Shown here: piece after piece, positions 1,256-31,324 of the stretch
Layout of the letters: every line of letters begins with the position of its first letter
Numbering within the stretch: position 1 is the stretch's first letter
DNA from: Planctomycetales bacterium
GTDB lineage: Bacteria; 4484-113; JAFGCY01
Reading direction: 5' to 3'
DNA length: 32,000 bases
Assembly: GCA_022646745.1 (NCBI GenBank)
Contig: CP060262.1
Location: 390,001-422,000 of the forward strand
The notes under the pieces: model-generated
Database searches by the model: none
What the model saw: the letters and a program-made list of their open reading frames with translations, nothing else
What the model was told of the DNA's origin: nothing
Program-made: the position numbers and the translations under genes

Positions 1256-1277
1256 GGAGGCCAGACGAGAGTCTGGC
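1256..1277 (+). repeat. GGAGG + hairpin GCCAGAC-GAGA-GTCTGGC directly after the BCCP stop
   Basis: The exact 23-nt string GGAGGCCAGACGAGAGTCTGGCA recurs at 24897. GNRA tetraloop. Confidence 0.8.
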
Positions 1278-4483: not shown

Positions 4484-4489
4484 ACCGAG

Positions 4490-8746: not shown

Positions 8747-8864
8747 ATTATTAATGAAAGTTGATTCCATAAACGGAAGAAAAACTCTTTGTGCTCTGTG
8801 CTCTCTGTGGTTGGAATCTCAGAGTGCTCCTCTTACTCGTTGTGCGACTCGCGCCGCACCTCCG

Positions 8865-11172: not shown

Positions 11173-11224
11173 GGAGTGTTGGTCTCAGACCAACAGGGCC
11201 CTGTAGCTCTCAGAGCTACACTCC
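11173..11224. repeat. Y-shaped element type 2 (outer stem GGAGTGT/ACACTCC with two inner hairpins), copy downstream of lipoprotein paralog 3
   Basis: GGAGTGT TGGTC-TCA-GACCA ACAGGGCCCT GTAGCTC-TCA-GAGCTAC ACTCC. Confidence 0.85.
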
Positions 11225-11272: not shown

Positions 11273-14200
11273 TCAGAACTGTGGATTGTACTTCTGCTTG
11301 AGCCAGCCGATGATGTTCTGCAGCATGTCGGCGCGGGTCATCCCCGGCGGCTCCGACTCAGTGATGTTGACAGCGGCCCAGGGGTAGCCGACCACCCAGT
11401 GGCGGGTGTTGCCGTGGTTGCTGATTGCGTAGTTTGGCCAGAACCCAAGATCACGGTATGGGGCAACTGTAGTTCCCCAGCTCAGGTGTCCCAACCAGTA
11501 GCCATCGGCCTGTTGCTGGGGCGCGAGACCGAGCGACAGGCCTGGCAGGATGAAGAATGGGTCATCGTAGTATCCGATTCCTGTGTATTGCAAGCCAGTG
11601 CCAACGCTGAGCTGTGTCGCATGTTTTCCACTCGATCCATCCAGCAGGTAGTTCTCCCCTGACTTGCTCCAACTGTTTGAACGTCCCAGGAAGCCGAAGT
11701 CAGCGTTGAAACTGGAGGGAGCGGAACTGAAGTATTTTCCGGCACCCAACCCAGTTCCATCATCCGTGACCACGGCGGATGCCCAGCAATGCCTGTATTC
11801 CTGCTGAGGCACTGCATACGGAAGTGGAATGACATCGTAGTAGTACTCCCACCCGCCGAGCAAACCCAGGTCAGGAAAGTCATTGACCTTGGAGTTGTTC
11901 TGGCTCATCATCAGCATCGGCCGGCCCTGCTCAAGGATGGCGATGTAGTTGTCAATCTCAGCCGTAGTCCACATCGTCTCCTGGCGCGGCTCGATGGCAT
12001 CCGCCGGCCCGCCCCTGTACCAGAGGACGAGGAAGTGCCCGTGCGGCTGCAGGTCTGCCAGGATGCTGTCCGTGTACGGAATGACCTGCCAGTCCAGCCC
12101 GAGGCTGTCCAGGTCGGCTGTCAGCGCGGTGAGGTTGGCATCATAGCTGCCACCGTCATTGCGGATGATGGCGACATCGAAATCGCCACCGTAGACCACG
12201 ATGTCCTTCGTGACCGCCATCGACCCGACTTCATTGAAGCCGGCGAGGCTGACGGGATGGCTGCCGGGGCCAAGGCCGTCCAGCTGGACCTGCAGCTGGT
12301 CGACAAACTCATAGATGCCGTCATTGTCAACATCCCAGGCGAAGTAGTCAATCGCCGGGGAACCCTGCAGTGTTGTGACATCAAGGGTGACCGACAGCTC
12401 CTCATCCCCCAGCCGGGAGGGAGGATCGATGCTGAAGCCCAGCTCCATTGAGGCGCTGGGCACGAGGATCGTCTGGTACTCGATCGGCAGATCCTGCTTC
12501 AGGTACATCCTGATCCAGAACTGGGCGGAACCGCTGTTGATCTGTGCCTGGCCCGAGTAATCAAACGGCTCGACCAGGCTTTCATTGGAGAAACCCGGCC
12601 CGGACAGGCGAACATCTTCCACAAGGCCGTCCGGGTCAACAAGGTCCAGGCTGTATTCAAGTTCATACGGCCGGAAGTCGATCTCCGGGTTGAATTCGTG
12701 CATGTAGTATGGCGCCGTCAGGCAACTGGCAATCACCGGCTCGCTGATGGCCGCATTGCCAAACTTGTCACGCACCTCAAGCTGGACGGAAGTCTCAGAA
12801 CTGCCTGTGCAGCTGAACTGCCAGCTGCTGTCCGTGATGAAGCCGCCCTGCGGGATGCCGTCAAGCAGCAGCCGGCAGACCGGACTGGCACCCCAGAGGT
12901 TCGCCCGCCGTACTGTGAAATCCGCCGGCGCCAGCAGGACATCGTCATCCAGCACAGCTGTGACACTGGGCCAGGGATGCAGCTGCACGGTGCTGTCTGC
13001 CTCCCGGTACAGCCCATCAGTACCCAGCACCCTGAGGCGCACGGAATGCAGCTTGGCAATCTCAGGCGTGTATTCAAATGGCTCAGCCCCGCCGGTGACC
13101 TGCACTGCTTCCGGCTGTGAGTCCACATACCAGGCGTACTGCACGACTTCAGTGGTACCCCCAGTTATTGGTGTGAATGTGAAGCTGTGCGGTGCCACGG
13201 CCTCGCTTTCGCTCGGTTCAATGGCGACCGTCACCAGGCCCTCCAGGCTGAAGCTACTGAGCGCTTCAGAGCTGGCGCCGTCGCCGTCCGTAACGCGCAG
13301 CCGCACAAGGGAAGTGCCACCCATGAAGCCGGCGTCCAGCTGGGCAGCGGCATCGGCAAGCTCGAACTCGCCGTCGCCATCGAGGTCCCAGTCGTAGCTG
13401 GCAATCCCGCCGTCCCAGTCCGAACTGGCGGAGGCATCGAAGCTGACCGTATATGGCTCCGGGCCTTCCCCGACTTTATAGCTGAACTCCGCCTGCGGCA
13501 GGGCATTCAGCCTGTAACTGGCCAGCTTGCCGGGCTGCCCTTCAGTGCCTGAGCCTGCATCCCAGGCCGTGACGTAATACTCCATCGTCCCGGCTGTTGC
13601 CAGCTCATCCACATATGTGAAATCCCGGATGTCCCGCCGTGCCGCCTTCAGGAGGAAGGTCACATCACTCTCCGGCCCGCCCGGCCCCGGCAGCAGCTCA
13701 GTCTTCGCCAGCAGCGGAATGTGCCGGTACAGGCGGTAGCCCGTGATCCGCTCCTTCCAGTGCTGGGCGATCACTGTCACATCGGCGAGGCCGACCAGTC
13801 CATCCGCGTTGCCATCGATGTGAGAAAGAGTCCAGTTGTGGCTGCCGACGGAGTTGTCATCGCGGTCCCCGGCCGGCCAGTATATAAGTCCATCCGCTTC
13901 CTCCTCCGGCAGGTAGCTGACCTTCTCATTCCAGTGGATCGCCAGCGGTACAAGGTCGGAGGCGTTGACCTCACCGTTGCCATCGTAATCGCCCGGCAGG
14001 CGGGCCGTCCAGCTCAGTTCGATGCGGTTGAGCTGTTCATTCACATCGGAGACGCGCTTCGCCTGGAGGGTGAACACCTCCGTCCCCGCGGCCGGGGCAG
14101 CACTGGCATTGCGCTCGGTCCCGAGCCGCTCCAGTTCAGCAGCAAGGAACTGCTCCAGCTCTGAGAAGTCGGCTGCTTCAGGTGCAGTGGATTCGACAGC

Positions 14201-14380
14201 AGGCTGTATTGCATTGTCAGGTTGGCCAGCCGGTGACTGTCCGCGCAGGCTGTGAGGTTCCGCCCTGCCCTGCCGCGCCAGTTCACCACTGCCGGAGGAA
14301 CAGGCTGCCAGGCACAGCGCAAGCAGGGCCAGCAGGCCCGCTGCCAGACGCATCGACAAGTTGTCAGAACTGCGGGTCAT
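11273..14380 (-). CDS. Large secreted lipoprotein, paralog 3 of 3: lipobox signal, dockerin-like Ca-binding loops, FN3-like module, PKD/Ig-like repeats, C-terminal alpha/beta domain with variable insert
   Basis: 1035 aa. MRLAAGLLALLALCLAAC lipobox. GDYDGNGEVNASDLVPL and DGNADGLVGLADVTVIAQHW (dockerin/EF-hand-like). GYRLYR...YYVTAWD (FN3-like). FDASASSDWDGGIASYDWDLDGDGEFE...LRVTDGDG (PKD). An alternative start at ATG 14353 (MRLAAG...) would remove the overlap with the upstream gene. Confidence 0.85.
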   Translation of the reverse strand: MTRSSDNLSMRLAAGLLALLALCLAACSSGSGELARQGRAEPHSLRGQSPAGQPDNAIQPAVESTAPEAADFSELEQFLAAELERLGTERNASAAPAAGTEVFTLQAKRVSDVNEQLNRIELSWTARLPGDYDGNGEVNASDLVPLAIHWNEKVSYLPEEEADGLIYWPAGDRDDNSVGSHNWTLSHIDGNADGLVGLADVTVIAQHWKERITGYRLYRHIPLLAKTELLPGPGGPESDVTFLLKAARRDIRDFTYVDELATAGTMEYYVTAWDAGSGTEGQPGKLASYRLNALPQAEFSYKVGEGPEPYTVSFDASASSDWDGGIASYDWDLDGDGEFELADAAAQLDAGFMGGTSLVRLRVTDGDGASSEALSSFSLEGLVTVAIEPSESEAVAPHSFTFTPITGGTTEVVQYAWYVDSQPEAVQVTGGAEPFEYTPEIAKLHSVRLRVLGTDGLYREADSTVQLHPWPSVTAVLDDDVLLAPADFTVRRANLWGASPVCRLLLDGIPQGGFITDSSWQFSCTGSSETSVQLEVRDKFGNAAISEPVIASCLTAPYYMHEFNPEIDFRPYELEYSLDLVDPDGLVEDVRLSGPGFSNESLVEPFDYSGQAQINSGSAQFWIRMYLKQDLPIEYQTILVPSASMELGFSIDPPSRLGDEELSVTLDVTTLQGSPAIDYFAWDVDNDGIYEFVDQLQVQLDGLGPGSHPVSLAGFNEVGSMAVTKDIVVYGGDFDVAIIRNDGGSYDANLTALTADLDSLGLDWQVIPYTDSILADLQPHGHFLVLWYRGGPADAIEPRQETMWTTAEIDNYIAILEQGRPMLMMSQNNSKVNDFPDLGLLGGWEYYYDVIPLPYAVPQQEYRHCWASAVVTDDGTGLGAGKYFSSAPSSFNADFGFLGRSNSWSKSGENYLLDGSSGKHATQLSVGTGLQYTGIGYYDDPFFILPGLSLGLAPQQQADGYWLGHLSWGTTVAPYRDLGFWPNYAISNHGNTRHWVVGYPWAAVNITESEPPGMTRADMLQNIIGWLKQKYNPQF

Positions 14381-17300
14381 AATCCACCTTCAGCCAGGCG
14401 ATGATGTTCTGCAGCATGTCGGCGCGGGTCATCCCCGGCGGCTCCGACTCAGTGATGTTGACAGCGGCCCAGGGGTAGCCGATGACCCAATGGCGGGTTG
14501 ATCCGTGATCAGAGAAATTCCTGCCTGGCCAGGTACCAATATTACGATAGGGGGAGAAGTAGCTGCCCCAGCTGAAATGAGCCAGCTTGTAACCACTTAA
14601 CTCTTCCAGCGGAGTAAGACCAGTCGTTGCATAAAGGACTGTCTCCGAGTGGAAACCTTCCTCATAAAGGCCGATGCCGCAATATTGCAGGCCATCCGGC
14701 ATCTCAATCTGGCTGGCCCGGTACCCGGAGCTGCCTTCTTCGTTGTAACTTTCAACCCGCCACTTTGATGCTTCCCTGCTTGTCAATGTGCCCAGGTCTG
14801 CAGTGAAGCTCTGCGGTGATGTCGGGAAGAACTGGCCCTTCTCGAATCCAATGCCGTCATCCGTGACGACACTTGAAGCCCAGGCGTGCCTGGATTCCTC
14901 AAATGGAAGTGTATAGGCCTGCAAATCTGCTCCGTAGAAGAATTCCCAGCCACCAAACCAATCTAGTGGATGGTGATCTGTCAGCTTGGAGTTGTTCTGG
15001 CTCATCATCAGCATCGGCCGGCCCTGCTCAAGGATGGCAATGTAGTTGTCAATCTCAGCCTCAGCCCACATCGTCTCCTGGCGCGGCTCGATGGCATCCG
15101 CCGGCCCGCCCCTGTACCAGAGGACGAGGAAGTGCCCGTGCGGCTGCAGGTCTGCCAGGATGTCGTCCGTGTACGGAATGACCTGCCAGTCCAGCCCGAG
15201 GCTGTCCAGGTCGGCTGTCAGCGCATTGAGGTTGGCATCGTAGCTGCCACCTTCATTGCGAATGATGGCGACATCGAAATCCCCACCGTAGACCACGATG
15301 TCCTTCGTGACAGCCTTCGACCCGACTTCATTGAACCCGGCGAGGCTGACGGGATGGCTGCCGGGGCCAAGGCCGTCCAGCTGGACCTGCAGCTGGTCGA
15401 CAAACTCATAGATGCCGTCATTGTCAACATCCCAGGCGAAGTAGTCAATCGCCGGGGAACTCTGCAGTGTTGTGACATCAAGGGTGACCGACAGCTCATC
15501 ATCTCCCAGCCGGGACGGGGGATCGCTGCTGAAGTCCAGCTCCATTGTGGCACTGGGCACGAGGATCGTCTGGTACTCGATCGGCAGATCCTGCTTCAGG
15601 TACATCCTGATCCAGAACTGGGCGGAACCGCTGTTGATCTGTGCCTGGCCCGAGTAATCAAACGGCTCGACCAGGCTTTCATTGGAGAAACCCGGCCCGG
15701 ACAGGCGAACATCTTCCACAAGGCCGTCCGGGTCAACAAGGTCCAGGCTGTATTCAAGTTCATACGGCCGGAAGTCGATCTCCGGGTTGAATTCGTGCGT
15801 GTAGTATGGCGCCGTCAGGCAACTGGCAATCACCGGCTCGCTGATGGCCGCATTGCCAAACTTGTCACGCACCTCAAGCTGGACGGAAGTCTCTGAGCTT
15901 TCCGCGCAGCTGAACTGCCAGCTGCTGTCCGTGATGAAGCCGCCCTGCGGGATGCCGTCAAGCAGCAGCCGGCAGACCGGACTGGCACCCCAGAGGTTCG
16001 CCCGCCGTACTGTGAAATCCGCCGGCGCCAGCAGGACATCGTCATCCAGCACAGCTGTGACACTGGGCCAGGGATGCAGCTGCACGGTGCTGTCTGCCTC
16101 CCGGTACAGCCCATCAGTACCCAGCACCCTGAGGCGCACGGAATGCAGCTTGGCAATCTCAGGCGTGTATTCAAATGGCTCAGCCCCGCCGGTGACCTGC
16201 ACTGCTTCCGGCTGCGCATCCACGTACCAGGCGTACTGCACAACTTCCGTCGTTCCACCGATCAGCGGAGTGAAGATGAAGCTGTGCGGTGCCACGGCTT
16301 CGCTTTCGCTCGGTTCAATGGCGACCGTCACAAGGCCCTTCAGGCTGAAGCTCCTGAGCGCTTCAGAGCTGGCGCCGTCGCCGTCCGTAACGCGCAGCCG
16401 CACAAGGGAAGTGCCACCCATGAAGCCGGCGTCCAGCTGGACAGCGGCATCGGCAAGCTCGAACTCGCCGTCGCCATCGAGGTCCCAGTCGTAGCTGGCA
16501 ATCCCGCCGTCCCAGTCCGAACTGGCGGAGGCATCGAAGCTGACCGTGTATGGCTCCGGGCCTTCCCCGACTTTATAGCTGAACTCCGCCTGCGGCAGGG
16601 CATTCAGCCTGTAACTGGCCAGCTTGCCGGGCTGCCCTTCAGTGCCTGAGCCTGCATCCCAGGCCGTGACGTAATACTCAATCGTCCCGGCTGTTGCCAG
16701 TTCGTCCACATAGCTGAAGTCCCGGATGTCCCGCCTTGCAGCCTTGAGGAGGAAAGTCACATCACTCTGCGGCCCGCCTGGGCCCGGCAGCAGTTCAGTC
16801 TTCGCCAGCAGCGGGATGTGCCGGTACAGGCGGTAGCCCGTGATCCGCTCCTGCCAGTGCTGGGCAATCACTGTCACATCGGCGAGGCCGACCAGTCCAT
16901 CCGCGTTGCCATCGATATGCGAAAGCGTCCAGTTGTGGCTGCCGACGGAGTCGTCATCGCGGTCCCCAGCGGGCCAGTATGCAACTCCGCCCGCTTCCTC
17001 CTCCGGCTGGTAGCTGACCTTCTCATTCCAGTGGATCGCCAGGGGCACCAGGTCGGAGCTGTTGACCTCGCCGTTGCCATCGTAGTCACCGGGCAGGCGG
17101 GCCGTCCAGCTCAGTTCGATCCGGTTGAGCTGCTCGTTCACATCGGAGACGCGCTTCGCCTGGAGGGTGAACACTTCCGTCCCCGCGGCTGGCGCGGCAC
17201 TGGCATTGCGCTCAGTCCCGAGCCGCTCCAGCTCATCAGTGAGGAACTGCTCCAGCTCTGAGAAGTCGGCTGCAGCAGGTGCAGTGGATTCGACAGCAGG

Positions 17301-17477
17301 CTGTATAGCATTGTCAGGTTGGCCAGCCGGTGACTGTCCGCGCAGGCTGTGAGGTTCCGCCCTGCCCTGCTGCGCCAGTTCACCACTGCCGGAGGAACAG
17401 GCGGCCAGGCACAGCGCAAGCATGGCCAGCAGGCCCGCCGCCAGACGCATCGACAAGTTGTCAGAACTGCGGGTCAT
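14364..17477 (-). CDS. Large secreted lipoprotein, paralog 2 of 3 (same architecture as paralog 3)
   Basis: 1037 aa. By eye it differs from paralog 3 at roughly one residue in twenty over the first ~830 aa and again matches over the last ~45 aa, but is strongly divergent in between. Alternative start at ATG 17450. Confidence 0.85.
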   Translation of the reverse strand: MTRSSDNLSMRLAAGLLAMLALCLAACSSGSGELAQQGRAEPHSLRGQSPAGQPDNAIQPAVESTAPAAADFSELEQFLTDELERLGTERNASAAPAAGTEVFTLQAKRVSDVNEQLNRIELSWTARLPGDYDGNGEVNSSDLVPLAIHWNEKVSYQPEEEAGGVAYWPAGDRDDDSVGSHNWTLSHIDGNADGLVGLADVTVIAQHWQERITGYRLYRHIPLLAKTELLPGPGGPQSDVTFLLKAARRDIRDFSYVDELATAGTIEYYVTAWDAGSGTEGQPGKLASYRLNALPQAEFSYKVGEGPEPYTVSFDASASSDWDGGIASYDWDLDGDGEFELADAAVQLDAGFMGGTSLVRLRVTDGDGASSEALRSFSLKGLVTVAIEPSESEAVAPHSFIFTPLIGGTTEVVQYAWYVDAQPEAVQVTGGAEPFEYTPEIAKLHSVRLRVLGTDGLYREADSTVQLHPWPSVTAVLDDDVLLAPADFTVRRANLWGASPVCRLLLDGIPQGGFITDSSWQFSCAESSETSVQLEVRDKFGNAAISEPVIASCLTAPYYTHEFNPEIDFRPYELEYSLDLVDPDGLVEDVRLSGPGFSNESLVEPFDYSGQAQINSGSAQFWIRMYLKQDLPIEYQTILVPSATMELDFSSDPPSRLGDDELSVTLDVTTLQSSPAIDYFAWDVDNDGIYEFVDQLQVQLDGLGPGSHPVSLAGFNEVGSKAVTKDIVVYGGDFDVAIIRNEGGSYDANLNALTADLDSLGLDWQVIPYTDDILADLQPHGHFLVLWYRGGPADAIEPRQETMWAEAEIDNYIAILEQGRPMLMMSQNNSKLTDHHPLDWFGGWEFFYGADLQAYTLPFEESRHAWASSVVTDDGIGFEKGQFFPTSPQSFTADLGTLTSREASKWRVESYNEEGSSGYRASQIEMPDGLQYCGIGLYEEGFHSETVLYATTGLTPLEELSGYKLAHFSWGSYFSPYRNIGTWPGRNFSDHGSTRHWVIGYPWAAVNITESEPPGMTRADMLQNIIAWLKVDYDPQF

Positions 17478-20400
17478 AGTCCACCTTCAGCCAGCCGATG
17501 ATGTTCTGCAGCATGTCCGCGCGTGTCATGCCGGGCGGCACCGAATCAGCGATATCTACTGCCGCCCATGGGAAGCCTACAACCCACTGGCGTGTGTTGC
17601 CATGGTCACTGAAGCTGTAGTTCGGCCAGTGGCCCATATTGCGGTATGGAGTCTGGGTCCCACCCCAGCTGCCATAGACCAGGTTGAAGCCGTTCTGCAA
17701 CGGAGTGACAACCAATCCAGTGATTCCACTGGGGGGAACCGGCTCAAGGAAATCATTGCTGTATGCCGTGCAGCTTAGTTGCAGGCCTGGTTCAAGAACA
17801 ATCTGCTTGACGGAGTACCCAGAGCTGCCTGGGCCACCATACTTTTCCGCAGTATAGTCAAAATCCCAGATAGTTCTGTCGATCATCCCAGTCACATCCC
17901 CGGAGAAGCTTACCGGGGCAAACTCAAACCACTGATTGGTTCCGAATCCGGTGTATCTGTCACACATCAGCGCCTGCGCCCAAATTAAGCGATGCTCATC
18001 TGCATCAACAACAGCATCCTGGATGTCTGCGTTGAAAAAGGTTTCATATCCGCCGGACCATTCCGGATGTTCTGACGGCCTTGTGCTGTTCTGGCTCATC
18101 ATCAGCATCGGCCGGCCCTGCTCTAGGAGCGCGATGTAGTTGTCAATCTCCGCCGTGGTCCACATCGTCTCCTGGCGCGGCTCGATGGCATCCGCCGGAC
18201 CGCCGCGGTACCACAGCACCACGAAGTGCCCGTGGCTGAGCAGATCACTGGCAATGCTGTCCGAGTACGGGAATTCCTGCCAGCTCAGGGCAAGTGAGTC
18301 AAGGTCGTCCTTGATTGCGTCAATGTTCGTGCTGTATGTCCCGCCGTCGTTGCGGATGATGGCGACATCCGTCTCAACCGGCCAGACCTGCATGGTATGG
18401 CTGAAGGAGCGTGTGTCGCCAATGGAGTTCTCCACTTCCAGCCTGACTTCATGAATACCGGGCTCCAGCCAATTGGTAGTGAAGTGGAATTCATTCAAAT
18501 TGGAGCCATAGCCACCGTTCACAAACCACTCATGACTGCGTATGGATGGGTACCCATCGTATTCCGTGATGTCCACTTCCGCATTGACCCCACTGCCCAT
18601 GTATGACTCCGGCGTAATGCTGAAGTCAGCAAGGATGTACCCCGAATCAAAGTAATAATCAGTTGCCAGGTCAGGATACTGGAACATGTCAAGCGTCAGT
18701 CTGAAGTACGGCCAGTTTGACTGGCCTGCTCCTTCGCTTGTGTTATATGTTCCACCTTTAAGCGAGACACTCTTGTCAGGATCCGTGTCTCCATTTGGCA
18801 ATCTGACGAGGATCTGGTTCACCAGGTTGTCAGGATCGTCAATTTCAGTGATCTGCCAGTTTATGTCAAACGGATATGTCCCGATCTTCGGATCGTATTC
18901 GAAGGTGATGTCAGGCAGTACCTGTGCCTTCACTGTGTAGGCCTTGCTCAGTGCCGTGTTGCCGAACTTGTCAATCGCCTCGACCTGCAGCTCCGCACTG
19001 CCTCTCTCCTGCAGCACGTACAGCCAGCTTGTCTGCTGGTTGAATTCACCCTGCGGGTTGCCATCCACCACGAGACGGAAAAGCGGGTCCGCACCGCTGG
19101 AGGCGGTGACACTCTGGGTGAATGTCGCTGGTGCCAGACCATATGCACTTTCCGGCCTGGCTGTGACACTGACTTCCGCATGGCACTGCAGCAACAGGCT
19201 GGCTTCGCGGTAGATGCCGTCCTCGCCCTTCACCTTGAGGCGCGCGGTAGTTGATTCCGGGGAATTGAGAGTGAACTGTTTCGGCTCCGGCGTGAATTCC
19301 AGTGCGACCGGCGTCTCATCCGCACCTTCATACCATTCATACTGCACAGCCGGCATGCTGCCGCTGACAACAGGATTGACGGTGAAGGTATGCGGGGTAA
19401 TGGCCTCGGATTCGTCCACCTGCAGCTGCACATTCAGCAGGGAGGGCAGCAGGATGTTGCGGCTCAGCACGGTCTGCCCGCCCTGGTCATCGGTCACCCG
19501 CAGCTGGATGAGCGGGAAGCCCGCCGGCAGCACCGCCTCGATCTCGGCTGAGTCCGCCGCATCGGCAAACTCGCCGTCGCCATCGAGGTCCCATGCGTAA
19601 CTGACGATCTCACCGTCAGGATCATTGCTGCCCAGCGCGCTGAAGGAGAGCGTATAGGGTTCGTCCTCCACGAGGATCTCGTAGTCAAACTCCGCGATCG
19701 GCTGCATGTTGACGAGGTAGGAGGCGATGTTGCCTTCCGGTGCTTCCGTGTCTGTGAACTCGTCCCAGGCGCGCACCGTGTACTGATAGCTGCCGGGGAT
19801 GCCGACACTGTCAATGTAGGCATACTCCCGCAGGACCGGGTCGTCCGCCTCGCGGCTGACACTGATCGGGCTGTCCTCCACGTCCGGCATCGGCAGCAGC
19901 ACCCCGTTGCCAAGCTCCAGGTTGCGGCGGTAGATGCGGTAGCCGGTGTAGCGCTGCTTCCAGTGCTGCGCGATCACCGTCACGTCGGCCATGCCAACCA
20001 CGCCGTCATGGTTGCCATCAACATAGCTCGCCAGCCAGTTCTGCCTGCCAAGCGAATTGTCATGCCGGTCACCCGCCGGGAAGTGGTCGATGCCGCTTTC
20101 CTCCACAGGCAGGTAGGAAACCTGCTGGCCCCAGCGCTGGCCAAGCGGCACGAGGTCGCCGAAGTTCACTTCGCCATTGCCGTCGTAGTCACCGGGCAGG
20201 TGCTTGGTCCAGCGCAGTTCCACCCGGTTGAGCTGCTCACCGGGTCCGGAAACACGGGTGGCCGACAGGTTGAACACCGCGCTGTCGGCACCGGGGGCTT
20301 CGCTGGCCGTGCGCTGCTTCTCCAGGCGCTCCAGTTCAGCAAGCAGGAAGTTCTCGATCCGCTCAATGTCGCATTCGCCGCCGGAGCTAGCGGTCGGATC

Positions 20401-20637
20401 CACCGCTGCCGTATCCGAGTCGTCCTGCGCATTATCCGCAGCACCGTTCGTGATCACTTCCCCGTGTACGGTCAGCAGCTGGGAACTCTGGTTATTGGCA
20501 TCAAGTGAGCTGGACTTACTGCCGCCGCAGGATGCAAGCAGTAAAAGCAGCAGGCAGGCAGCAGCCAGCCGTGATGGAAGGAGCACGCGTGCAGCAGAAT
20601 TCGCCGTGTGCATCTTTTCAGCACTGATTTCAGCCAT
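17461..20637 (-). CDS. Large secreted lipoprotein, paralog 1 of 3 (more divergent copy, same domain order)
   Basis: 1058 aa. LLLLLLASCGG lipobox, GDYDGNGEVNFGDLVPL and DGNHDGVVGMADVTVIAQHW, a PKD block (SNDPDGEIVSYAWDLDGDGEF...LRVTDDQGG), and the conserved C-terminal HGHFVVLWYRGGPADAIEPRQETMWTTAEIDNYI and GMTRADMLQNIIGWLKVDYDPQF. SD-like GGGGGA precedes ATG 20637; ATG 20613 is an alternative. Confidence 0.85.
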   Translation of the reverse strand: MAEISAEKMHTANSAARVLLPSRLAAACLLLLLLASCGGSKSSSLDANNQSSQLLTVHGEVITNGAADNAQDDSDTAAVDPTASSGGECDIERIENFLLAELERLEKQRTASEAPGADSAVFNLSATRVSGPGEQLNRVELRWTKHLPGDYDGNGEVNFGDLVPLGQRWGQQVSYLPVEESGIDHFPAGDRHDNSLGRQNWLASYVDGNHDGVVGMADVTVIAQHWKQRYTGYRIYRRNLELGNGVLLPMPDVEDSPISVSREADDPVLREYAYIDSVGIPGSYQYTVRAWDEFTDTEAPEGNIASYLVNMQPIAEFDYEILVEDEPYTLSFSALGSNDPDGEIVSYAWDLDGDGEFADAADSAEIEAVLPAGFPLIQLRVTDDQGGQTVLSRNILLPSLLNVQLQVDESEAITPHTFTVNPVVSGSMPAVQYEWYEGADETPVALEFTPEPKQFTLNSPESTTARLKVKGEDGIYREASLLLQCHAEVSVTARPESAYGLAPATFTQSVTASSGADPLFRLVVDGNPQGEFNQQTSWLYVLQERGSAELQVEAIDKFGNTALSKAYTVKAQVLPDITFEYDPKIGTYPFDINWQITEIDDPDNLVNQILVRLPNGDTDPDKSVSLKGGTYNTSEGAGQSNWPYFRLTLDMFQYPDLATDYYFDSGYILADFSITPESYMGSGVNAEVDITEYDGYPSIRSHEWFVNGGYGSNLNEFHFTTNWLEPGIHEVRLEVENSIGDTRSFSHTMQVWPVETDVAIIRNDGGTYSTNIDAIKDDLDSLALSWQEFPYSDSIASDLLSHGHFVVLWYRGGPADAIEPRQETMWTTAEIDNYIALLEQGRPMLMMSQNSTRPSEHPEWSGGYETFFNADIQDAVVDADEHRLIWAQALMCDRYTGFGTNQWFEFAPVSFSGDVTGMIDRTIWDFDYTAEKYGGPGSSGYSVKQIVLEPGLQLSCTAYSNDFLEPVPPSGITGLVVTPLQNGFNLVYGSWGGTQTPYRNMGHWPNYSFSDHGNTRQWVVGFPWAAVDIADSVPPGMTRADMLQNIIGWLKVDYDPQF

Positions 20638-23535: not shown

Positions 23536-24855
23536 TTGGAAGTCCTGATAGCCATCCTGATCATCGCCGTGCTGATAATGCTCAGCGCATTCTTCAGCGG
23601 CGGCGAACTGGCGCTGATGTCGCTGGACCTGGTCTCACTCGAGGACCGGGCAAACTCCGGCGACCGCATCGCGCAGATGCAGCTCACGATGCGCCGCCGC
23701 CCACAGCGCACGCTGGGCACGATCCTGATCGGCAACAACATCGTCAACATCATCGCGCCGACCTTCGCGACACTCACCGCGCAGAAGCACCTCGCCCCGC
23801 TGCAGGGCATCGGCGAGCATGCCACGCTGATCAGCACCATCGCCATGATCGTGCTGGTGACGATCTTCGGCGAACTGGTGCCGAAGACCTTCGCCGCGGT
23901 GCGCGGGCAGCGCGTTGCCAAGCTGGTGACACCGCCGCTGTACATCCTGGACATGCTGCTCCTGCCCGCCAACTGGCTGCTGGAGGCGGTGCTCTCGCCG
24001 CTGATCCGCTGGCTGACCGGCGGGCGCACCAACGTCGAGCAGCGCATCGGCCCCGGTGAGCTGCGGGCGGTGCTGACGGCGGCGATGGCCGGCGGGCATG
24101 TCAACAAGCAGGATGTGGCGATCGCGCGCGAGGCGATCCAGATGTCGCACCGCGACCTGGAGGACGTGATGACCCCGCGCGTGGAGATTGAGGCCCTGCC
24201 GGTGACGGCGACGGTCGGCGAGGCGATGCACCTGATGGACTCCACCGGGCACTCGCGCATCCCGCTGTACGAGGAGAGCGTTGACAACATCACCGGCGTG
24301 CTGATCCTGAAGGACCTGGTGCACGTCAGCCTGCGGGCCGCGGTCGGCGGGCTGGACCCGGGGGACCGCTGGGCCTCGGAGCCGGCTGTGACCTACCGCC
24401 GCGAGGTGCTGCACTACCCCGGCACAAAGGGCATCCTCGAGACGATGAGCGAGATGAACCGCAACCGCGTGCACCTCGTGGTCGTTGTCGACGAACATGG
24501 CGGGACCGACGGGATCGCCACGCTGGAGGACATCATCGAGGAGCTGATCGGCGACATCCGCGATGAGACGGACACCGAGCACCACGCGGACATCGTGCGC
24601 ATCGGCGAGGGCTTCATGCTGATCACGGGGCGCGCGCGGATCGACTCGATTGACATGCTGGACGGGGTGGACACCACTGAGCTGGACAGCAACAGCGTGG
24701 GCGGGCTGATGATGGAGAAGCTGGACCGCGCGGTGGTGGCCGGTGACGTGCTGGAACTGCCGGGCCTGAAGCTGACGGCGCTGAAGGTGATTGGCAACAC
24801 GGTGAAGCTGATCAGGGTGGAGGAAGTTGGGGAAGAGGAAACAGAATCAGAATGA
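23536..24855 (+). CDS. CNNM/CorB-HlyC family protein (DUF21 membrane domain, CBS pair, CorC_HlyC domain); putative Mg2+/Co2+ efflux or hemolysin-like transporter
   Basis: SAFFSGGELALMS and FGELVPK (DUF21), a CBS pair (VMTPRVEIEAL..., HLVVVVDEHGGTDGIATLEDIIEELIGDI), and a C-terminal CorC domain. The only in-frame start after the upstream stop is TTG 23536, and it has no SD. Confidence 0.88.
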   Translation: MEVLIAILIIAVLIMLSAFFSGGELALMSLDLVSLEDRANSGDRIAQMQLTMRRRPQRTLGTILIGNNIVNIIAPTFATLTAQKHLAPLQGIGEHATLISTIAMIVLVTIFGELVPKTFAAVRGQRVAKLVTPPLYILDMLLLPANWLLEAVLSPLIRWLTGGRTNVEQRIGPGELRAVLTAAMAGGHVNKQDVAIAREAIQMSHRDLEDVMTPRVEIEALPVTATVGEAMHLMDSTGHSRIPLYEESVDNITGVLILKDLVHVSLRAAVGGLDPGDRWASEPAVTYRREVLHYPGTKGILETMSEMNRNRVHLVVVVDEHGGTDGIATLEDIIEELIGDIRDETDTEHHADIVRIGEGFMLITGRARIDSIDMLDGVDTTELDSNSVGGLMMEKLDRAVVAGDVLELPGLKLTALKVIGNTVKLIRVEEVGEEETESE

Positions 24856-24896
24856 GAAACAGCAGACCGGAGCGGAGGCTTCCAGCCGCCGGAATC

Positions 24897-24918
24897 GGAG
24901 GCCAGACGAGAGTCTGGC
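24897..24918 (+). repeat. Second copy of the GGAGG + GCCAGAC-GAGA-GTCTGGC hairpin, downstream of the CNNM gene
   Basis: Identical to 1256-1277. Confidence 0.8.
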
Positions 24919-25061
24919 AACTGTCTGAAACAGTTTAGATAGTCTTAATAGTGGAAGAAGTTGTTAGTTGCTAGTTCTTAGTGGCAGCGCTGCTCACCGC
25001 TGGAAAGTGCTCAGTTGCCAGCCAGAGCAATCGCCCTCTCGCGAAGAGAGCAAAACTAGGA

Positions 25062-25118
25062 GACGTAGGGTGGCGGTAATACCGCCACCGGGATGGGGTG
25101 TTACCCCATCCCTACTTC
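25062..25118 (-). repeat. Y-shaped element type 1, copy 4, inverted orientation
   Basis: The reverse complement matches the 8552 copy through both inner hairpins. One mismatch in the outer stem. Confidence 0.85.
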
Positions 25119-25134
25119 AGATCCAAGAGCCGGT

Positions 25135-25394
25135 GGAGCAGCGTTGCGCAGGCGTAGCCGAAGCTGCGCAAGCTTTGTAACGAATATAGCCAGCGAAGCT
25201 GCGCTTCGCGGCTCCTCCGGAGTGTCGCTCCAAGAGCGACATGGCCCCGTAGCTCCCAGAGCCACACTCCGATCCGTTGTCAGACTGTCGTCTGAGCTCC
25301 TTGCCGAGCTTGCGCTCGACCTCCCCGCCTGACTCGCGTCAGGCCTCCGAGCCCGGCTTGCGCCGGACCTCCGTTGTCAGCTTTACAGCTGACA
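25135..25394 (-). repeat. Composite repeat family C, copy 1 (~250 nt): GC-rich box, Y element type 2, hairpin/CCTCC array
   Basis: Collinear with 27657-27900 at high identity by eye. 29405-29642 is a more diverged third member. Confidence 0.8.
25219..25270. repeat. Y-shaped element type 2
   Basis: GGAGTGT CGCTC-CAA-GAGCG ACATGGCCCC GTAGCTC-CCA-GAGCCAC ACTCC. Confidence 0.85.
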
Positions 25395-25447
25395 TCCGCT
25401 CCAAACTCCAACCCCCAAACTCGTTGTCAGCTTTATAGCTGACCTCC
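25280..25447 (-). repeat. Array of six short hairpins, each followed on the plus strand by (A/C)CTCC (GGAGG + hairpin in the sense of the PLP-enzyme gene)
   Basis: TCAGAC-TGTC-GTCTGA, CGAGC-TTGC-GCTCG, CCTGAC-TCGC-GTCAGG, CCGGC-TTGC-GCCGG, TGTCAGCT-TTAC-AGCTGACA, GTCAGCT-TTAT-AGCTGAC. Confidence 0.85.
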
Positions 25448-25469
25448 GCTACGCCCGACTACCCAGGTC

Positions 25470-26663
25470 CTACACCCTCGCCAGAGCCTGTTCAAGGTCA
25501 GCGATGATGTCCGCCGTGGTCTCGCAGCCGATGCTGAAGCGCACCATCCCGTCAGGGATGCCGGCCTCCTGGCGCTCCTCAGAAGTCATGCCGACATGCG
25601 TCATGCTGGCCGGGTGCTGGATCAGGGTGTCAACGCCGCCGAGGCTGACCGCCAGTGAGCAGAGGCGGACCGCATCCATCATGGCCTTGCCGGCCTCCAG
25701 CCCGCCCTTCAGCTCGAAGCTCATCAGGCTGCCCGGCCCGCTGGCCTGCTTCTCGTTCAGCTCGCGCTGCGGATGGGACTTCAGCCCGAGGTAGTGCACC
25801 CGCTTGACCTTCGGGTGCTTCTCCAGCCACTTGGCAATCTTCTTCGCGCTCTTCTGCATCTGCTTCACGCGCAGCTCCAGCGTCTTCAGGCCGCGGATCA
25901 CAAGCCAGGCCTGGTGCGGGTCCATCGTGGCCCCGAGGTGGTACCAGGCATGGTGCACCTCCTTGTAGTGCTCCTTGTGGGCGAACACGATGATGCCGCC
26001 CACCACGTCGGAGTGGCCGTTCAGCGACTTCGTGATGCTGTGCACCACGATGTCCGCGCCGTGCTCGATCGGGCGCTGCAGCACGGGGCTGAGCACGGTG
26101 TTGTCAACGGCCAGCAGGCAGCCGTTGCCATGCGCGATCGCGGCTGCGGCCGCGATGTCCGTCACCGCGATCGCCGGGTTGGCCGGGGTCTCGATGAAAA
26201 CCATGCGGGTGTTGGGCTTCATCGCCGCGCGGATGTTGTCGGCATCGGAGCTGTCAACGAAGCTGAATTCAACGCCGAAGCGGCTCCAGTGGCGCTCAAT
26301 GTTGATGCGGGTCGGGGCATAGATGCTCTCGCTCATCACGATGTGGTCGCCGGCGTTCAGCAGCGCGAAGAACAGCGTGTTCACCGCGCCGATGCCCGTC
26401 GAGCAGGCCAGCGCATCGGCTCCGCCCTCCAGCGAGGCCACATTGCGCTCGAGCACGTCGATCGTTGGGTTGGCCAGCCGGGTGTAGATGTAGCCCTGGG
26501 TATGGTCCTTGAAGCACTGCGCCCCGTGGTCCGTGTTGCGGAACTTGTAGGTGGAGGACTGCACGATCGGCGGGATCACCGACCCGTACTCATCCCCGTG
26601 GAACCCACCGTGGATGCTGCGGGTCGCAAAACCCTCGAATTCATGCTCATGCTTGTCTGACAT
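25470..26663 (-). CDS. Cys/Met-metabolism PLP-dependent enzyme, methionine gamma-lyase / O-acetylhomoserine sulfhydrylase-like
   Basis: TRSIHGG..., SSTYKF, YTRLANPT, and the PLP-lysine block HSITKSLNGHSDVVGG. 397 aa. GGAGG lies 7 nt upstream of the ATG. Confidence 0.88.
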   Translation of the reverse strand: MSDKHEHEFEGFATRSIHGGFHGDEYGSVIPPIVQSSTYKFRNTDHGAQCFKDHTQGYIYTRLANPTIDVLERNVASLEGGADALACSTGIGAVNTLFFALLNAGDHIVMSESIYAPTRINIERHWSRFGVEFSFVDSSDADNIRAAMKPNTRMVFIETPANPAIAVTDIAAAAAIAHGNGCLLAVDNTVLSPVLQRPIEHGADIVVHSITKSLNGHSDVVGGIIVFAHKEHYKEVHHAWYHLGATMDPHQAWLVIRGLKTLELRVKQMQKSAKKIAKWLEKHPKVKRVHYLGLKSHPQRELNEKQASGPGSLMSFELKGGLEAGKAMMDAVRLCSLAVSLGGVDTLIQHPASMTHVGMTSEERQEAGIPDGMVRFSIGCETTADIIADLEQALARV

Positions 26664-26713: not shown

Positions 26714-27616
26714 ATGCTCGATCAGTTCGTACAGCAGGCCCTCGAAAGGGCGAGAATCCGCCCCAGCCGCGCCAAGGGCCAGCATTTCCTGATAGATGAC
26801 CGGGTGCTAGCGGAGGTTATTCGGGCCGCCGAGCTTACGCCGGAGGATTACATAGTCGAGATCGGGCCGGGGCTCGGCACACTGACCACTTCACTGGCGC
26901 GCCGTGTGAAGAAGGTGTTCGCCTTCGAGCTGGACGAAGGCCTGGTGCGCTACCTGCACAACTGGGTGCTGCACGACAACCCGAACATCGAGCTGGAGGA
27001 CATCGCCTTCAACAAGTACGTGCTGGAGAAGGTGATCGAGCGCGCCAAGGCTGACGGGGCACCGCTGAAGATCGTGACCAACCTGCCCTACCAGATCAGC
27101 TCGGCCTTCCTGCACACTCTGGTGGAATACGCCGAGGACATCCAGCTGAGCGTGGTGATGCTGCAGAAGGAAGTCGCGCAGCGCGTGACGGCGCGGCCCG
27201 GCGACCCGGGCTACAACTCCTTTTCGATCTACCTGCAGACCTGGCTGTCGGCGCGGATGGTCTGCGATGTGCCGGAAGCCAGCTTCATGCCGGCGCCGAA
27301 GGTCCGGAGCGCGGTGATCCGCATCCGCCCGCTGGAGGACCGGGAGAAGCCGATGCCTCTCAACCGCGACATCTACTTCCACCTCGTTGAGAACGTGTTC
27401 CGCCAGCGGCGCAAGCAGATCAGCAATTCGCTGAACTTCGCCTTCGGGCACCTCTCCCAGGAGCAGGTGCAGCAGGCGCTGGAGACGGCGGCGATAGACC
27501 CGGTGATGCGCGCGCAGGACCTGTCGATGGATGACTACGTACGCCTCAGCGATGCTCTCGACGGGCTGGGCGTGATGGCGAAGCGGAAGGGGCGGGATTG
27601 GGAGGAGGAAGAGTAG
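26714..27616 (+). CDS. rsmA: 16S rRNA (adenine1518/1519-N6)-dimethyltransferase
   Basis: KGQHFLIDDRVLAEVI, the SAM-binding VEIGPGLGTLT, and NLPYQISS. I prefer the ATG at 26714 because TATAAT (26702-26707) lies 6 nt upstream. The ORF-track ATG at 26690 is the alternative. Confidence 0.88.
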   Translation: MLDQFVQQALERARIRPSRAKGQHFLIDDRVLAEVIRAAELTPEDYIVEIGPGLGTLTTSLARRVKKVFAFELDEGLVRYLHNWVLHDNPNIELEDIAFNKYVLEKVIERAKADGAPLKIVTNLPYQISSAFLHTLVEYAEDIQLSVVMLQKEVAQRVTARPGDPGYNSFSIYLQTWLSARMVCDVPEASFMPAPKVRSAVIRIRPLEDREKPMPLNRDIYFHLVENVFRQRRKQISNSLNFAFGHLSQEQVQQALETAAIDPVMRAQDLSMDDYVRLSDALDGLGVMAKRKGRDWEEEE

Positions 27617-27660
27617 TCAGTAGGCAGTGGGCAGAAGGCAAAAGGCAGGAGGCAGAGGGA
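27617..27660. repeat. GGCAGNN heptamer array starting right after the rsmA stop
   Basis: GTCAGTAGGCAGTGGGCAGAAGGCAAAAGGCAGGAGGCAGAGGGA. Confidence 0.75.
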
Positions 27661-27743
27661 GCTGCGTTGCGAAGGCGAAGCCGTAGCTGCGCAGGCTCTG
27701 TCTTGTCAGCAAAGCCAGTGATGCTGCGCTTCGCGGCTCCTCC

Positions 27744-27796
27744 GGAGTGTCGGTCTCAAGACCGACAGGGCCTAGTGGCTCCCAGAGCCACACTCC
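27744..27796. repeat. Y-shaped element type 2
   Basis: GGAGTGT CGGTC-TCAA-GACCG ACAGGGCCTA GTGGCTC-CCA-GAGCCAC ACTCC. Confidence 0.85.
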
Positions 27797-27805
27797 GATC
27801 CATTG

Positions 27806-27900
27806 CCAGCTTTACAGCTGGCCTCCTGGCCGAGCTGGCGCTCGACCTCCCCGCCCGGCTCGCGCCGGACCTCCGTTGCCAGGCTAACAGCCTGGCCTCC
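27806..27900 (-). repeat. Array of four hairpin + CCTCC units abutting the CYTH stop codon
   Basis: CCAGCT-TTAC-AGCTGG CCTCC, CGAGC-TGGC-GCTCG ACCTCC, CCGGC-TCGC-GCCGG ACCTCC, CCAGGCT-AAC-AGCCTGG CCTCC. Confidence 0.85.
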
Positions 27901-29433: not shown

Positions 29434-29485
29434 GGAGTGTCGCTCTGAGAGCGACAGGGCCATGTAGCTCTGAGAGCTACACTCC
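29434..29485. repeat. Y-shaped element type 2
   Basis: GGAGTGT CGCTC-TGA-GAGCG ACAGGGCCAT GTAGCTC-TGA-GAGCTAC ACTCC. Confidence 0.85.
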
Positions 29486-29522
29486 GACCTCCTAACTCCA
29501 ACCGCCAAACTCCAAACCTGTT

Positions 29523-29642
29523 GCCAGACTTTCGTCTGGCTTCCGGGCCAATCTTGCGCTCGACCACCGAGCCTGGCTCGCGCCAGACCTCCAATGGTGC
29601 AGCTTTGCAGCACCTCCGATGGCACAGCTTCGCAGTGCCTCC
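29523..29642 (-). repeat. Array of four hairpin + CTCC units abutting the MoeA-like stop codon
   Basis: GCCAGAC-TTTC-GTCTGGC (same stem as 1260/24901), CTGGC-TCGC-GCCAG ACCTCC, GTGCAGC-TTT-GCAGCAC CTCC, GGCACAGC-TTC-GCAGTGCC TCC. Confidence 0.8.
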
Positions 29643-29644: not shown

Positions 29645-31324
29645 CTAGTAGATCAGCACCTCGACTTCCTCGCCGTCGGAGTACTGGCGGCCGCCCTCGA
29701 TCGGCAGCAGGGCCTGGCCACGGATGTAGTCCAGCCAGGGGTCGCCCTCCTGCCCGGCATAACGCGTTGCCAGCCGGCCGCTCTCGCGGTCGCGGCGGTA
29801 GCGGATGGCGCGCAGGCTGTCACGTTCGGTCTGGATGCGCGAGCCGTTCTCCAGCACCACGATCTCCGTGCTCTGGAAGTTGCGCGGGCGCAGGTACTTG
29901 TGTGACAGCGGACGTACGAATGCCACGAAGGCGCTGATCGCCTCCGGCAGTGAACCGGGCATCGAGACCACCGGGCGGCCGTTGACCTTGCCGGCGGTGA
30001 TGTGGCGGCAGGGATCGACATCAATGCCCGCCATGTAGACGGTGCCCAGCGAGGCGATCACGTCATGCGCCAGTGAGCGGTGCCGGTGGTGTGAGCCGCC
30101 GACGATGTACAGCACATCAACCTGGCTGGTCCAGACCTTCATAGCATTGCGCAGCTCACGGAAGCCGTCCGGTGCATAGCCCATCAAAAGCGATGCCACC
30201 TGCGCACTCTGGGAGAGGTGGTAGCAGGCCGTGGCGATCGGGCATTCCTCCTCGCGCTTCTCCTGGCCTCCGGCCCGGCCGGCCACCGGGAAGGGCAGTC
30301 CGAGGCTGGCGATGCCGACCACGGGCTTGCGGAACACCTCGACCTCGTCAACACGCAGGGCCTTGAGCATTGCTAGGTCCAGCGGGCCGAGCACGGCCTT
30401 CTCCGGGATCATCGCTTCCTTGTTGCGGGCCCAGGAGCCGATCGGCAGCAGGTTGCGCTCCGGCTTCTCAAACACGCGCGGCAGTTCCACCTTGCCATTC
30501 TGGTACTGGTTCACCAGCTCCCAGTCACGCGGCGGCTCCTCAACGGGGGCGGCCTCCTCCGGCTCGGGTTCGTCACGGCGCCTGCGGCGGCGGCGGTCCG
30601 GCTCGGGCTTGGGCGGTTCCTTGTAGTCGAACTCGTACTCACCGGGCAGCGGCACGAGGTCATCCAGTGGGTAGACCATGTCCGCCCCGCGCGGCACCTC
30701 CTGGCCGATGGCGACCGGGATCGCCTGGCCGTGGCGCAGCGCCTCATCCTTGCGGTTGCTCTGGGGCGGGCGGCGCAGCTGGAACTCGGCGGGCGGGACC
30801 TCCACATCACTGTGGCGCTCCTCACGGCGCTCAACGGCCGGGCCGCTGTCCTCGTAGTCATCCTCAAACTCAGCCTCGGCGGCGTTGATCTGGAGGGACT
30901 CGAAGCTGGCCTCCTCCTCGTCCTCCTCGGCCTCGCCGTCAGCGCTCTTGCGCTTGACCTTCTCGTCACGGCCGATCATGGACATGTCGATCGCGGCATC
31001 GGCGGTGATCGCCTCTTCCTCGATGATGTCCTCCTCCTCGACCTCGATCACTTCCTCGGCCTCGTCCTCGGCCATGTCCATGACGGACTGGCCGAGTTCG
31101 GCGGCGTGCTCCTTGAGCCAGGCACTGGCCTTCAGGTCACGGGACATGATCGCGAGGCCATCCACGAGGGACAGCGGACGGGAGGGCTGGTTGCCGCGTG
31201 CGGTGACGGGCTTGGCCAGGCGGTAGCCCAGCGCCTTTGATGATTTGATGGAAAGCGTGCGCGGGGGATAGGTCAGATCCATGATCCGCGCCAGCGCTTC
31301 CGCAAGATTTGGCTTGTCAGACAT
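29645..31324 (-). CDS. Divergent MoeA/gephyrin-E-like protein with large acidic and Arg-rich insertions
   Basis: The N-terminus LAEALARIMDL...ALGYRLAKPVTA..PSRPLSLVDGLAI parallels the MoeA domain I motif (P.fd.SamDGyA). GQAIPVAIGQEVPRGADMVYPLDD, VFRKPVVGIASLG, VDVLYIVGGSHH, GRPVVSMPGSLPEAISAFVAFVRP and a terminal GEEVEVLIY follow in MoeA order. Confidence 0.65.
   Translation of the reverse strand: MSDKPNLAEALARIMDLTYPPRTLSIKSSKALGYRLAKPVTARGNQPSRPLSLVDGLAIMSRDLKASAWLKEHAAELGQSVMDMAEDEAEEVIEVEEEDIIEEEAITADAAIDMSMIGRDEKVKRKSADGEAEEDEEEASFESLQINAAEAEFEDDYEDSGPAVERREERHSDVEVPPAEFQLRRPPQSNRKDEALRHGQAIPVAIGQEVPRGADMVYPLDDLVPLPGEYEFDYKEPPKPEPDRRRRRRRDEPEPEEAAPVEEPPRDWELVNQYQNGKVELPRVFEKPERNLLPIGSWARNKEAMIPEKAVLGPLDLAMLKALRVDEVEVFRKPVVGIASLGLPFPVAGRAGGQEKREEECPIATACYHLSQSAQVASLLMGYAPDGFRELRNAMKVWTSQVDVLYIVGGSHHRHRSLAHDVIASLGTVYMAGIDVDPCRHITAGKVNGRPVVSMPGSLPEAISAFVAFVRPLSHKYLRPRNFQSTEIVVLENGSRIQTERDSLRAIRYRRDRESGRLATRYAGQEGDPWLDYIRGQALLPIEGGRQYSDGEEVEVLIY

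Follow-up and report, generated by a model that had tools for sequence, protein, structure and literature searches.

GGAG-tagged hairpin repeats at gene ends of a Planctomycetales bacterium: a probable lineage-specific REP/RAYT system

Hairpin Units in the Analyzed Region

In the window, i.e., the whole 32,000-nt stretch of DNA analyzed here, short hairpins headed by the word GGAG were found singly, as a pair and as longer head-to-tail arrays downstream of the BCCP, helicase, CNNM, PLP-enzyme, CYTH and MoeA-like genes (Table 1). A scan for GGAG followed immediately by a stem of 6-10 bp returned units at every place named in the preliminary description of this DNA, as well as one solo unit absent from its list. 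The junctions were also as stated there. At the CYTH gene, the G of TAG is the first G of GGAGG; at the helicase gene, one nucleotide lies between the stop and the unit; and the CNNM gene has its own plus-sense unit, the array in the same gap belonging to the minus-strand PLP-enzyme partner. This convergent gap of 600 bp is dense with short perfect hairpins. Its array, when read in the direction of the PLP-enzyme gene (minus strand), consists of six hairpins that can be written as GGAG-G(6 bp)-4 nt-(6 bp)C, and the last four units follow one another with a period of 24 nt. The PLP-enzyme, CYTH and MoeA-like arrays are each followed by an inverted pair of a second repeat family (family 2).

Table 1. 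Positions of the hairpin units, which are putative REP elements, and of related features. Window positions are counted from its first letter; positions in the lower part refer to the whole genomes.
Feature	Position	Strand	Details
Single unit, GGAG GCCAGAC gaga GTCTGGC	1256-1277	+	BCCP gene, +2 nt from TAG stop (1251-1253)
Two units, head-to-tail (4513-4534, 4489-4510)	4489-4534	-	Helicase gene, TAG stop at 4536-4538
Solo unit, GGAG GTGCGGC gcga GTCGCAC	8842-8863	-	Co-oriented with upstream minus-strand gene
Family 2 copy	11173-11224		
Three consecutive, slightly overlapping ORFs	11273-20637	-	1035, 1037 and 1058 aa
CNNM/PLP-enzyme gap	24856-25469		Convergent
Solo unit	24897-24918	+	Past CNNM gene (stop 24853-24855)
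GTAG-tagged hairpin pair	25066-25115		In CNNM/PLP-enzyme gap
Family 2 inverted pair, GGAG TGTCGCTC..GAGCGACA / ..CTCC	25219-25270		Behind PLP-enzyme array
Six-unit array	25279-25447	-	Past PLP-enzyme gene; units 25426-25447, 25376-25397 (tag GGAT), 25351-25372, 25327-25348, 25303-25324, 25279-25300 (GGAGC)
Heptamer run	25399-25425		
Second in-frame TAG, PLP-enzyme gene	25449-25451	-	Abuts first unit (TAG C GGAGG)
TAG stop, PLP-enzyme gene	25470-25472	-	
Heptamer run	27610-27690		
Family 2 copy	27744-27796		Behind CYTH array
Four-unit array	27805-27900	-	Directly on TAG stop of CYTH gene (TAGGAGG)
Family 2 copy	29434-29485		Behind MoeA-like array
Heptamer run	29486-29520		
Five-unit array	29523-29642	-	MoeA-like gene, 2 nt past TAG stop (29645-29647); units 29621-29642, 29596-29617, 29571-29592, 29547-29568 (tag GGTG), 29523-29544 (tag GGAA)
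RAYT genes, this genome	1371888-1372844; 273712-274356		Flanks GGAG G[TC]GCGCAA cttgy
RAYT gene, this genome	2464352-2465188		Flanks GGAG TGTNGCTC, the type of family 2 in the window
RAYT gene, this genome	1991705-1992334		Flanks GGAG CTACCCGC
RAYT gene, this genome	1726838-1727470		Frame terminates inside a 7-bp/4-nt unit
Y1-transposase gene	C1:2017405-2017905		Bracketed by GTAGC-GGTGGCGCC hairpin
RAYT genes, sister genome	C1:690215-690796; 810019-810606		Flanks of 2-4 tandem 7-bp/4-nt units per side (GCCTGAT gtca; GTCCGGA gcca), sides inverted
Long called ORFs containing sense units	C1:3625631-3629908; 2024568-2026703		
Reading frames ending inside a unit	C1:1748208-1751345; 874738-874989; 3962535-3963296; 2800742-2801698; 1686597-1688018		

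Runs of 7-base repeats (TTTGGAG, CAGTGGG/CAGTAGG, GGGTTTC, CAGACNN and GCAGAAG) regularly stand behind the units, in the window as well as in many 3′ regions genome-wide. The usual layout of a 3′ region is stop codon, hairpin units, heptamers and terminator, the heptamers preceding the canonical hairpin-plus-T terminator where one exists.

For comparison, the genome of a sister species was used (G001, MAG AC1.30, of which 2.7 Mb was taken), which has 87% nucleotide identity to the studied genome in coding DNA. The PLP-enzyme gene has a second in-frame TAG six codons past its stop, next to the first unit, and the same TAG-6 codons-TAG layout is present in the sister genome (L001, 4191-4215), where four of the six codons differ, mostly at the third position or conservatively. 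The older stop may be the distal TAG; alternatively, the layout may represent a tandem-stop or readthrough arrangement.

Motif, Geometry and Copy Number

Statistics were taken over the whole 4.11-Mb genome, with gene calls made by a crude codon-usage caller. In 222 intergenic perfect hairpins, the last letter of GGAG directly adjoins the stem base, compared with 8-30 at the neighbouring offsets, and coding DNA is flat in this respect. Of these 222 hairpins, 190 begin their stem with G; therefore, the head of the unit reads GGAGG. The hairpins have either a 7-bp stem with a 4-nt loop or an 8-bp stem with a 3-nt loop, and the letters that follow are A, then A or G. When candidates were picked by their non-stem positions only (GGAG-N7-GNNA-N7-AA), at least six of the seven pairs were formed in 77% of the intergenic matches in this genome and in 90% of those in the sister genome, versus 8% in coding DNA.

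The preliminary description had suggested covariation across all copies as a check on the stems, which it regarded as simply differing from unit to unit. The stems do covary: among 134 distinct sequences, 80.4% of the cells pair, versus 55% in shuffles, and the covariation score is 0.633, versus 0.218 in shuffles and at most 0.12 with the partners slid. They are not free to differ, however, and fall into sequence subfamilies (GCCAGAC-gaga, GTCAGAC-gaaa, GTCAGCT-gtaa, GCCAGGCT-gta and GTGCGCAA-cttgy) that have G-Y-C at the base in common.

Intergenic units number 344, and 277 were counted in the coding 85% of the genome, the latter being mostly chance stems of 6 bp; the sister genome has 284 units in 1.88 Mb. 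Within arrays, the units follow one another head-to-tail with a spacing of 24 nt in 18 cases and of 25 nt in 8. With regard to gap context, G-type units are distributed over convergent (132), same-direction (104) and divergent (13) gaps, of which the convergent and divergent ones are equal in total length. In the genus, which is represented by three genomes, a single 22-nt unit pattern occurs 49, 33 and 6 times; no match was found in 26 other relatives or with the reversed-pattern control. A search of the window against Rfam returned no matches at the gathering score.

Since the genome has 61% G+C and GGAGG is frequent as a Shine-Dalgarno (SD) word, GC-rich palindromes beside SD-like words might be expected to be common between genes by chance alone. 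We consider this explanation almost certainly wrong in view of the sharply fixed offset between GGAG and the stem, the covariation, the 49 matches set against an empty reversed-pattern control and the lack of the pairing in coding DNA; in addition, all the statistics were replicated in the second genome.

RAYT Genes and Their Flanking Hairpins

The genome contains seven matches to Y1_Tnp (PF01797), and five proteins pass the NCBIfam model NF047646 (REP-associated tyrosine transposase, RAYT) with 86-105 bits against a cut-off of 80. The RAYT translations show an HUH motif (NHVH/NHAH) as well as YIHxNP. Inverted GGAG-tagged hairpins flank four of the five RAYT genes, with a stem type of its own for each gene (Table 1). 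REP/RAYT systems are defined by such an arrangement, with a RAYT gene placed between inverted REPs and the same REP scattered over the genome (PMC2817692).

In the sister genome, two RAYT genes are bracketed by tandem units of the 7-bp/4-nt class, whose subfamilies (Table 1) are among the most abundant in that genome. No RAYT gene of the studied genome has the 7-bp/4-nt subfamilies of the window on both sides, and the link of this class to RAYT genes comes from the sister genome together with one RAYT gene here, the reading frame of which terminates inside a 7-bp/4-nt unit. Units located downstream of a RAYT gene run antisense to that gene.

GTAG-tagged hairpins were also observed. The CNNM/PLP-enzyme gap contains a pair of them (GTAGG GTGGCGG taata CCGCCAC and GGGATGGGGT gtt ACCCCATCCC), and a similar hairpin brackets a Y1-transposase gene, which is one of two shorter genes below the RAYT cut-off. 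Thus, the genome holds GTAG-tagged REPs beside the GGAG-tagged ones.

Orientation and Anchoring at Stop Codons

According to the preliminary description, the units are always oriented with the upstream gene. This is correct for all units in the window, but genome-wide it is a bias and not a rule without exceptions. In same-direction gaps, 34 units of the 7-bp/4-nt class are co-oriented with the upstream gene (83%) and seven are anti-oriented, and some of the units counted as "anti-oriented" or "divergent" are probably misclassified because the gene caller missed five of seven RAYT genes. In convergent gaps, 56 of 60 such units lie nearer the co-oriented gene and four nearer the other. The corresponding ratios in the sister genome are 64:27 and 89:20. 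The 8-bp/3-nt class has a weaker orientation bias and also occurs as inverted doublets, which were found only in this class and in family 2. Overall, about 15-30% of the units break the orientation rule.

Insertion of IS200/IS605 elements follows the replication strand. A replication-strand bias, as expected for IS200/IS605-like insertion, was considered for the units and rejected: the leading strand holds 115 of 211 arrays, and leading- and lagging-strand genes show the same degree of co-orientation. The orientation coupling thus follows gene direction.

In 50 of 147 cases (34%), the first unit begins at -1 to +2 nt relative to the stop codon, although only 2.1 would be expected from uniform placement in the same gaps; the sister genome has 25 of 99 against an expected 0.7. 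The tail end, in contrast, abuts a stop codon in none of 127 cases here and in none of 73 in the sister genome. Orientation and stop distance, which the preliminary description had named as the statistics to be measured genome-wide, are therefore both non-random, and the anchoring is head-first. The commonest junction is TAGGAGG, in which the G of the stop codon is the first G of the tag (26 cases), and the next is TAG-N-GGAGG. The stop is TAG in 43 of the 50 anchored cases versus 36% genome-wide (Fisher p = 3e-13), and TAG is preferred 14-fold over TGA. TAG stop codons make up about 10% of all TAG sites outside genes, yet they account for 73% of the TAG-flanked units; hence, target preference alone fails to explain the anchoring. 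An obligatory TAG or TA at the 5′ flank of every unit was also rejected, as TAG lies within 5 nt of only 16 of 167 stop-distant first units and of no internal unit.

Turnover Between the Two Species

The comparison of orthologues included 634 genes with C-termini ending at the same place. A stop-adjacent unit is present in 33 of these genes in the studied genome, and 18 of the 33 orthologues also have one, compared with a baseline of 19 in 601. The hairpin is identical at only one of the 18 shared sites. A few pairs differ by a compensatory base pair or a loop base, and most belong to other subfamilies, often at the same offset. Consequently, the position persists and the hairpin is replaced. 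In the window, the first unit of the helicase gene has an orthologous copy in the sister genome with one loop change; the BCCP orthologue carries a different unit (GTCAGAA ttca TTCTGAC) a few nucleotides farther from the stop; and the PLP-enzyme array has a counterpart at the same place made up of other units. The dominant subfamilies differ between the two species as well. Where a unit is present in one genome only, the other genome still has TAG in 23 of 34 cases.

In the CYTH array, units 2 and 3 are identical to the first two units in the sister genome, and unit 1 is an extra 24 nt (GAGG-hairpin-AA) placed exactly between TAG and the next base. A second clean 24-nt insertion right after TAG, with the same boundaries, was found at gene 1118. 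When the two genomes were compared automatically for clean insertions and deletions, only three further events emerged, because intergenic DNA aligns poorly at 87% coding identity; the proposal of TAG as a target therefore draws on the two clean events at CYTH and gene 1118. Taken together, units have been gained, lost and swapped between the sister genomes.

Both the persistence of position and the proximity to stop codons could be explained if the stop-adjacent units acted on translation termination, the hairpin hindering the terminating ribosome and tuning down the upstream gene, and selection holding one unit at the stop. About a third of the first units do start at -1 to +2 nt, their position is conserved across species in spite of hairpin replacement, and there is a precedent in E. 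coli (reference 17 as cited in PMC12306157). On the other hand, insertion specificity is indicated by the preference for TAG and by the clean insertions that follow it, and about two thirds of the units are not stop-adjacent. We regard such a role as possible but rather unlikely.

It should be mentioned that at the orthologous stop-adjacent site of gene 1186, GGAG-GCCAAGCT gtt AGCCTGGC in one genome faces GTAG-CCCGGCT aca AGCCGGG in the other, and the two tags may accordingly be related.

Folded Strand, Terminators and Ribosomes

Among single non-Watson-Crick pairs in the stems, G·T/T·G exceed A·C/C·A by 45 to 13 in this genome and by 127 to 8 in the sister genome, which indicates that one strand is the folded one. 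For the array of the PLP-enzyme gene, the sense RNA folds at -90.2 kcal/mol and the antisense RNA at -69.0 kcal/mol. As to the loops, the GNRA type noticed earlier accounts for 65% here but for only 42% in the sister genome, in which the most frequent loop is GTCA. In place of GNRA, the consensus GNNA was adopted, in which G1 and A4 are constant. The wobble bias and the G...A loops are equally compatible with RNA and with single-stranded DNA as the substrate of a RAYT.

Canonical hairpin-plus-T terminators are few in the genome (216 in total). A canonical downstream terminator is 3.5 times likelier for unit-bearing genes, which fits the ends of transcription units. Of 30 unit-bearing genes with such a terminator, 14 have it past the units, and in the other 16 it precedes them or lies among them. 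Substitution of canonical terminators by the units is therefore not supported, since the units do not regularly replace them. The units themselves are followed by A-A/G-C with no T runs and so do not have the form of intrinsic terminators. The 16S rRNA tail has the canonical CCUCC, and the organism uses SD sequences; judging from these sequences, the tags could bind ribosomes.

Units next to a stop codon must be part of the transcript. Protection of 3′ ends and attenuation of transcription are known effects of REPs, and by analogy an RNA role of the units in 3′ UTRs is plausible. The preliminary description went further and argued from the orientation coupling and the GNRA loops for a function in 3′ UTR RNA. 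The strand asymmetry is real, as is evident from the orientation, the head-first anchoring, the G·T bias and the sense folding; GNRA is not the consensus, however, and an RNA-only reading is supported in part. In its full form, it would make the units primarily host RNA elements, which serve in U-tract-independent termination, 3′-end protection or ribosome capture via the SD-like GGAGG, with the RAYT link being secondary. Such a reading can call on the excess of head-first over tail-first anchoring, an orientation bias that tracks genes and not the replication strand, and positions conserved between species with the sequence replaced. The 21 kcal/mol advantage of the sense fold, the canonical 16S tail together with SD use, and the excess of downstream terminators also agree with it. 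It does not account well for the same units flanking RAYT genes and running antisense downstream of a RAYT gene, nor for the different subfamilies dominating each species, as expected of proliferating repeats. The 14-fold preference of TAG over TGA has no obvious RNA rationale, the GNRA loop is not conserved, a sizeable share of the units break the orientation rule, and the window gave no Rfam matches. We therefore consider it improbable that the units are host RNA elements in the first place.

Proposed Origin and Mode of Insertion

Based on the above results, we suggest that the units are very probably REP elements, which form a lineage-specific superfamily with a GGAG tag instead of GTAG and are handled as single-stranded DNA hairpins by their own RAYT/TnpA-REP. 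They are high-copy intergenic hairpins with a fixed tag and geometry, and their subfamilies stand inverted around their own RAYT gene. They are restricted to one genus among the relatives searched and are gained, lost and swapped between sister species. A DNA-level element, considered less likely in the preliminary description, is thus what the cognate RAYT genes and the turnover favour.

The following pathway can be proposed for the spread of the units. The GGAG tag would act as a recognition and guide word, as does GTAG in other REPtrons, where it guides the choice of the cleavage site (PMC8266576). By analogy with these systems, the units would be cut and joined as single-stranded hairpins. 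Insertion or exchange would occur at the head side, preferentially after TAG, the G of which completes the tag, similarly to the insertion of IS200/IS605 elements 3′ of a short target. Additions at the head side could then build head-to-tail arrays that start at stop codons, and could also allow hairpins to be swapped in place. Units starting 0-2 nt past a stop would be transcribed as 3′ UTR hairpins. Their secondary effects would probably be those of other REPs, namely protection from 3′ exonucleases, partial termination and, if fewer than 16 nt separate them from the stop, hindering of terminating ribosomes.

To our knowledge, nothing in RAYT and IS200/IS605 biology predicts that units should be tied to stop codons or to the direction in which the upstream gene runs. 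The preference for stop-codon TAGs and the coupling to gene direction go beyond this biology, and there are two candidate explanations, selection on the transcript or access to single-stranded DNA where translation ends. It is conceivable, though we put it forward only tentatively, that the REP system is coupled to translation stops, with 24-nt units (GAGG-hairpin-AA) inserted exactly 3′ of UAG, the first position kept occupied across species and its hairpin swapped. If this is true, then either the REP/RAYT system aims at the ribosome exit point on mRNA or the host keeps an exchangeable 3′-UTR hairpin at UAG-terminated genes.

Comparison with Known Systems

REPs are among the commonest bacterial repeats. 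The units described here share with the REPtrons of E. coli, Stenotrophomonas, Marinomonas and Pseudomonas (PMC2817692, PMC8266576) the extragenic hairpin repeats that are about 22 nt long and number in the hundreds, the unpaired tetranucleotide directly 5′ of the stem and the RAYT genes between inverted copies of their own REP type. Common features also include several REP types and several RAYTs per genome, and a single folded strand in which G·T pairs are tolerated. They differ from the REPtrons in the tag, which is GGAG and not GTAG, and in the strong coupling to the direction of the upstream gene. Whereas BIMEs are of alternating orientation, the 7-bp/4-nt arrays run head-to-tail with a 24-25 nt period.

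The units also resemble the GTAG/CGTC-tagged superfamilies described by Di Nocera et al. (2013, PMC3733652), which include SMAG repeats and families of Rhodopirellula baltica and Opitutus terrae. These likewise occupy mostly convergent or same-direction gaps near the 3′ end of the upstream ORF, their head end often coincides with a TAG stop, and their families comprise several stem subtypes. Published REPs are mostly found in convergent and seldom in divergent gaps, and the TAG of the REP tag often supplies stop codons (PMC3733652). In those families, TAG lies inside the GTAG tag, whereas here it lies outside the tag, overlapping it by one G (TAGGAGG) or standing one base ahead. GGAG is absent from the tag variants listed in that work (GYAG, GYRG, GTRG, GTMG and GTGG), and head-to-tail dimers are absent or rare in the published REP families (PMC3733652), unlike the head-to-tail arrays observed here.

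Elements of the IS200/IS605 group are similar in that they have a related HUH/Y1 enzyme (TnpA Y1), strand-specific action on single-stranded subterminal hairpins, and insertion directly 3′ of a short target word that is chosen via a guide tetranucleotide 5′ of the hairpin. Unlike these elements, the units carry no gene and have no replication-strand bias, and their putative TAG target is deduced from two clean events.

In E. coli, REPs located less than 16 nt from a stop codon are described as lowering translation by stalling terminating ribosomes (reference 17, as quoted in PMC12306157). The REP hairpin there lies at most 15 nt away from the upstream gene's stop codon, which resembles the present case; however, the distance here takes the fixed values of -1 or +1 nt, with TAG as the stop in nearly all cases.

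It is well supported that the units are of a known kind (REP/RAYT), distinctive in the GGAG tag, the one-way 24-nt arrays and the single-base anchoring at TAG stops with persistence of position. With a tag identical to the SD core, one-way arrays, single-base TAG anchoring and positions that outlast their hairpins, this lineage offers a clean case, in which insertion specificity and selection on the transcript can be directly tested against each other using two sister genomes and a handful of RAYT enzymes.

Implications for Annotation

REP units explain much of the hairpin-dense DNA past genes in these uncultured bacteria. GGAGG words located there should not be taken for ribosome-binding sites, nor open frames running through 24-nt arrays for genes. 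The arrays can be read through, because the period of 24 nt equals eight codons and two frames of most units have no stops. Some units lie in sense inside long called ORFs (Table 1), and these are either REPs in genes or artefacts of the gene caller. Several other reading frames enter a unit, continue through GGAGG and the 5′ arm, and terminate at TGA in the 3′ arm (GTC TGA C), so that the final seven codons and the stop codon come from the REP.
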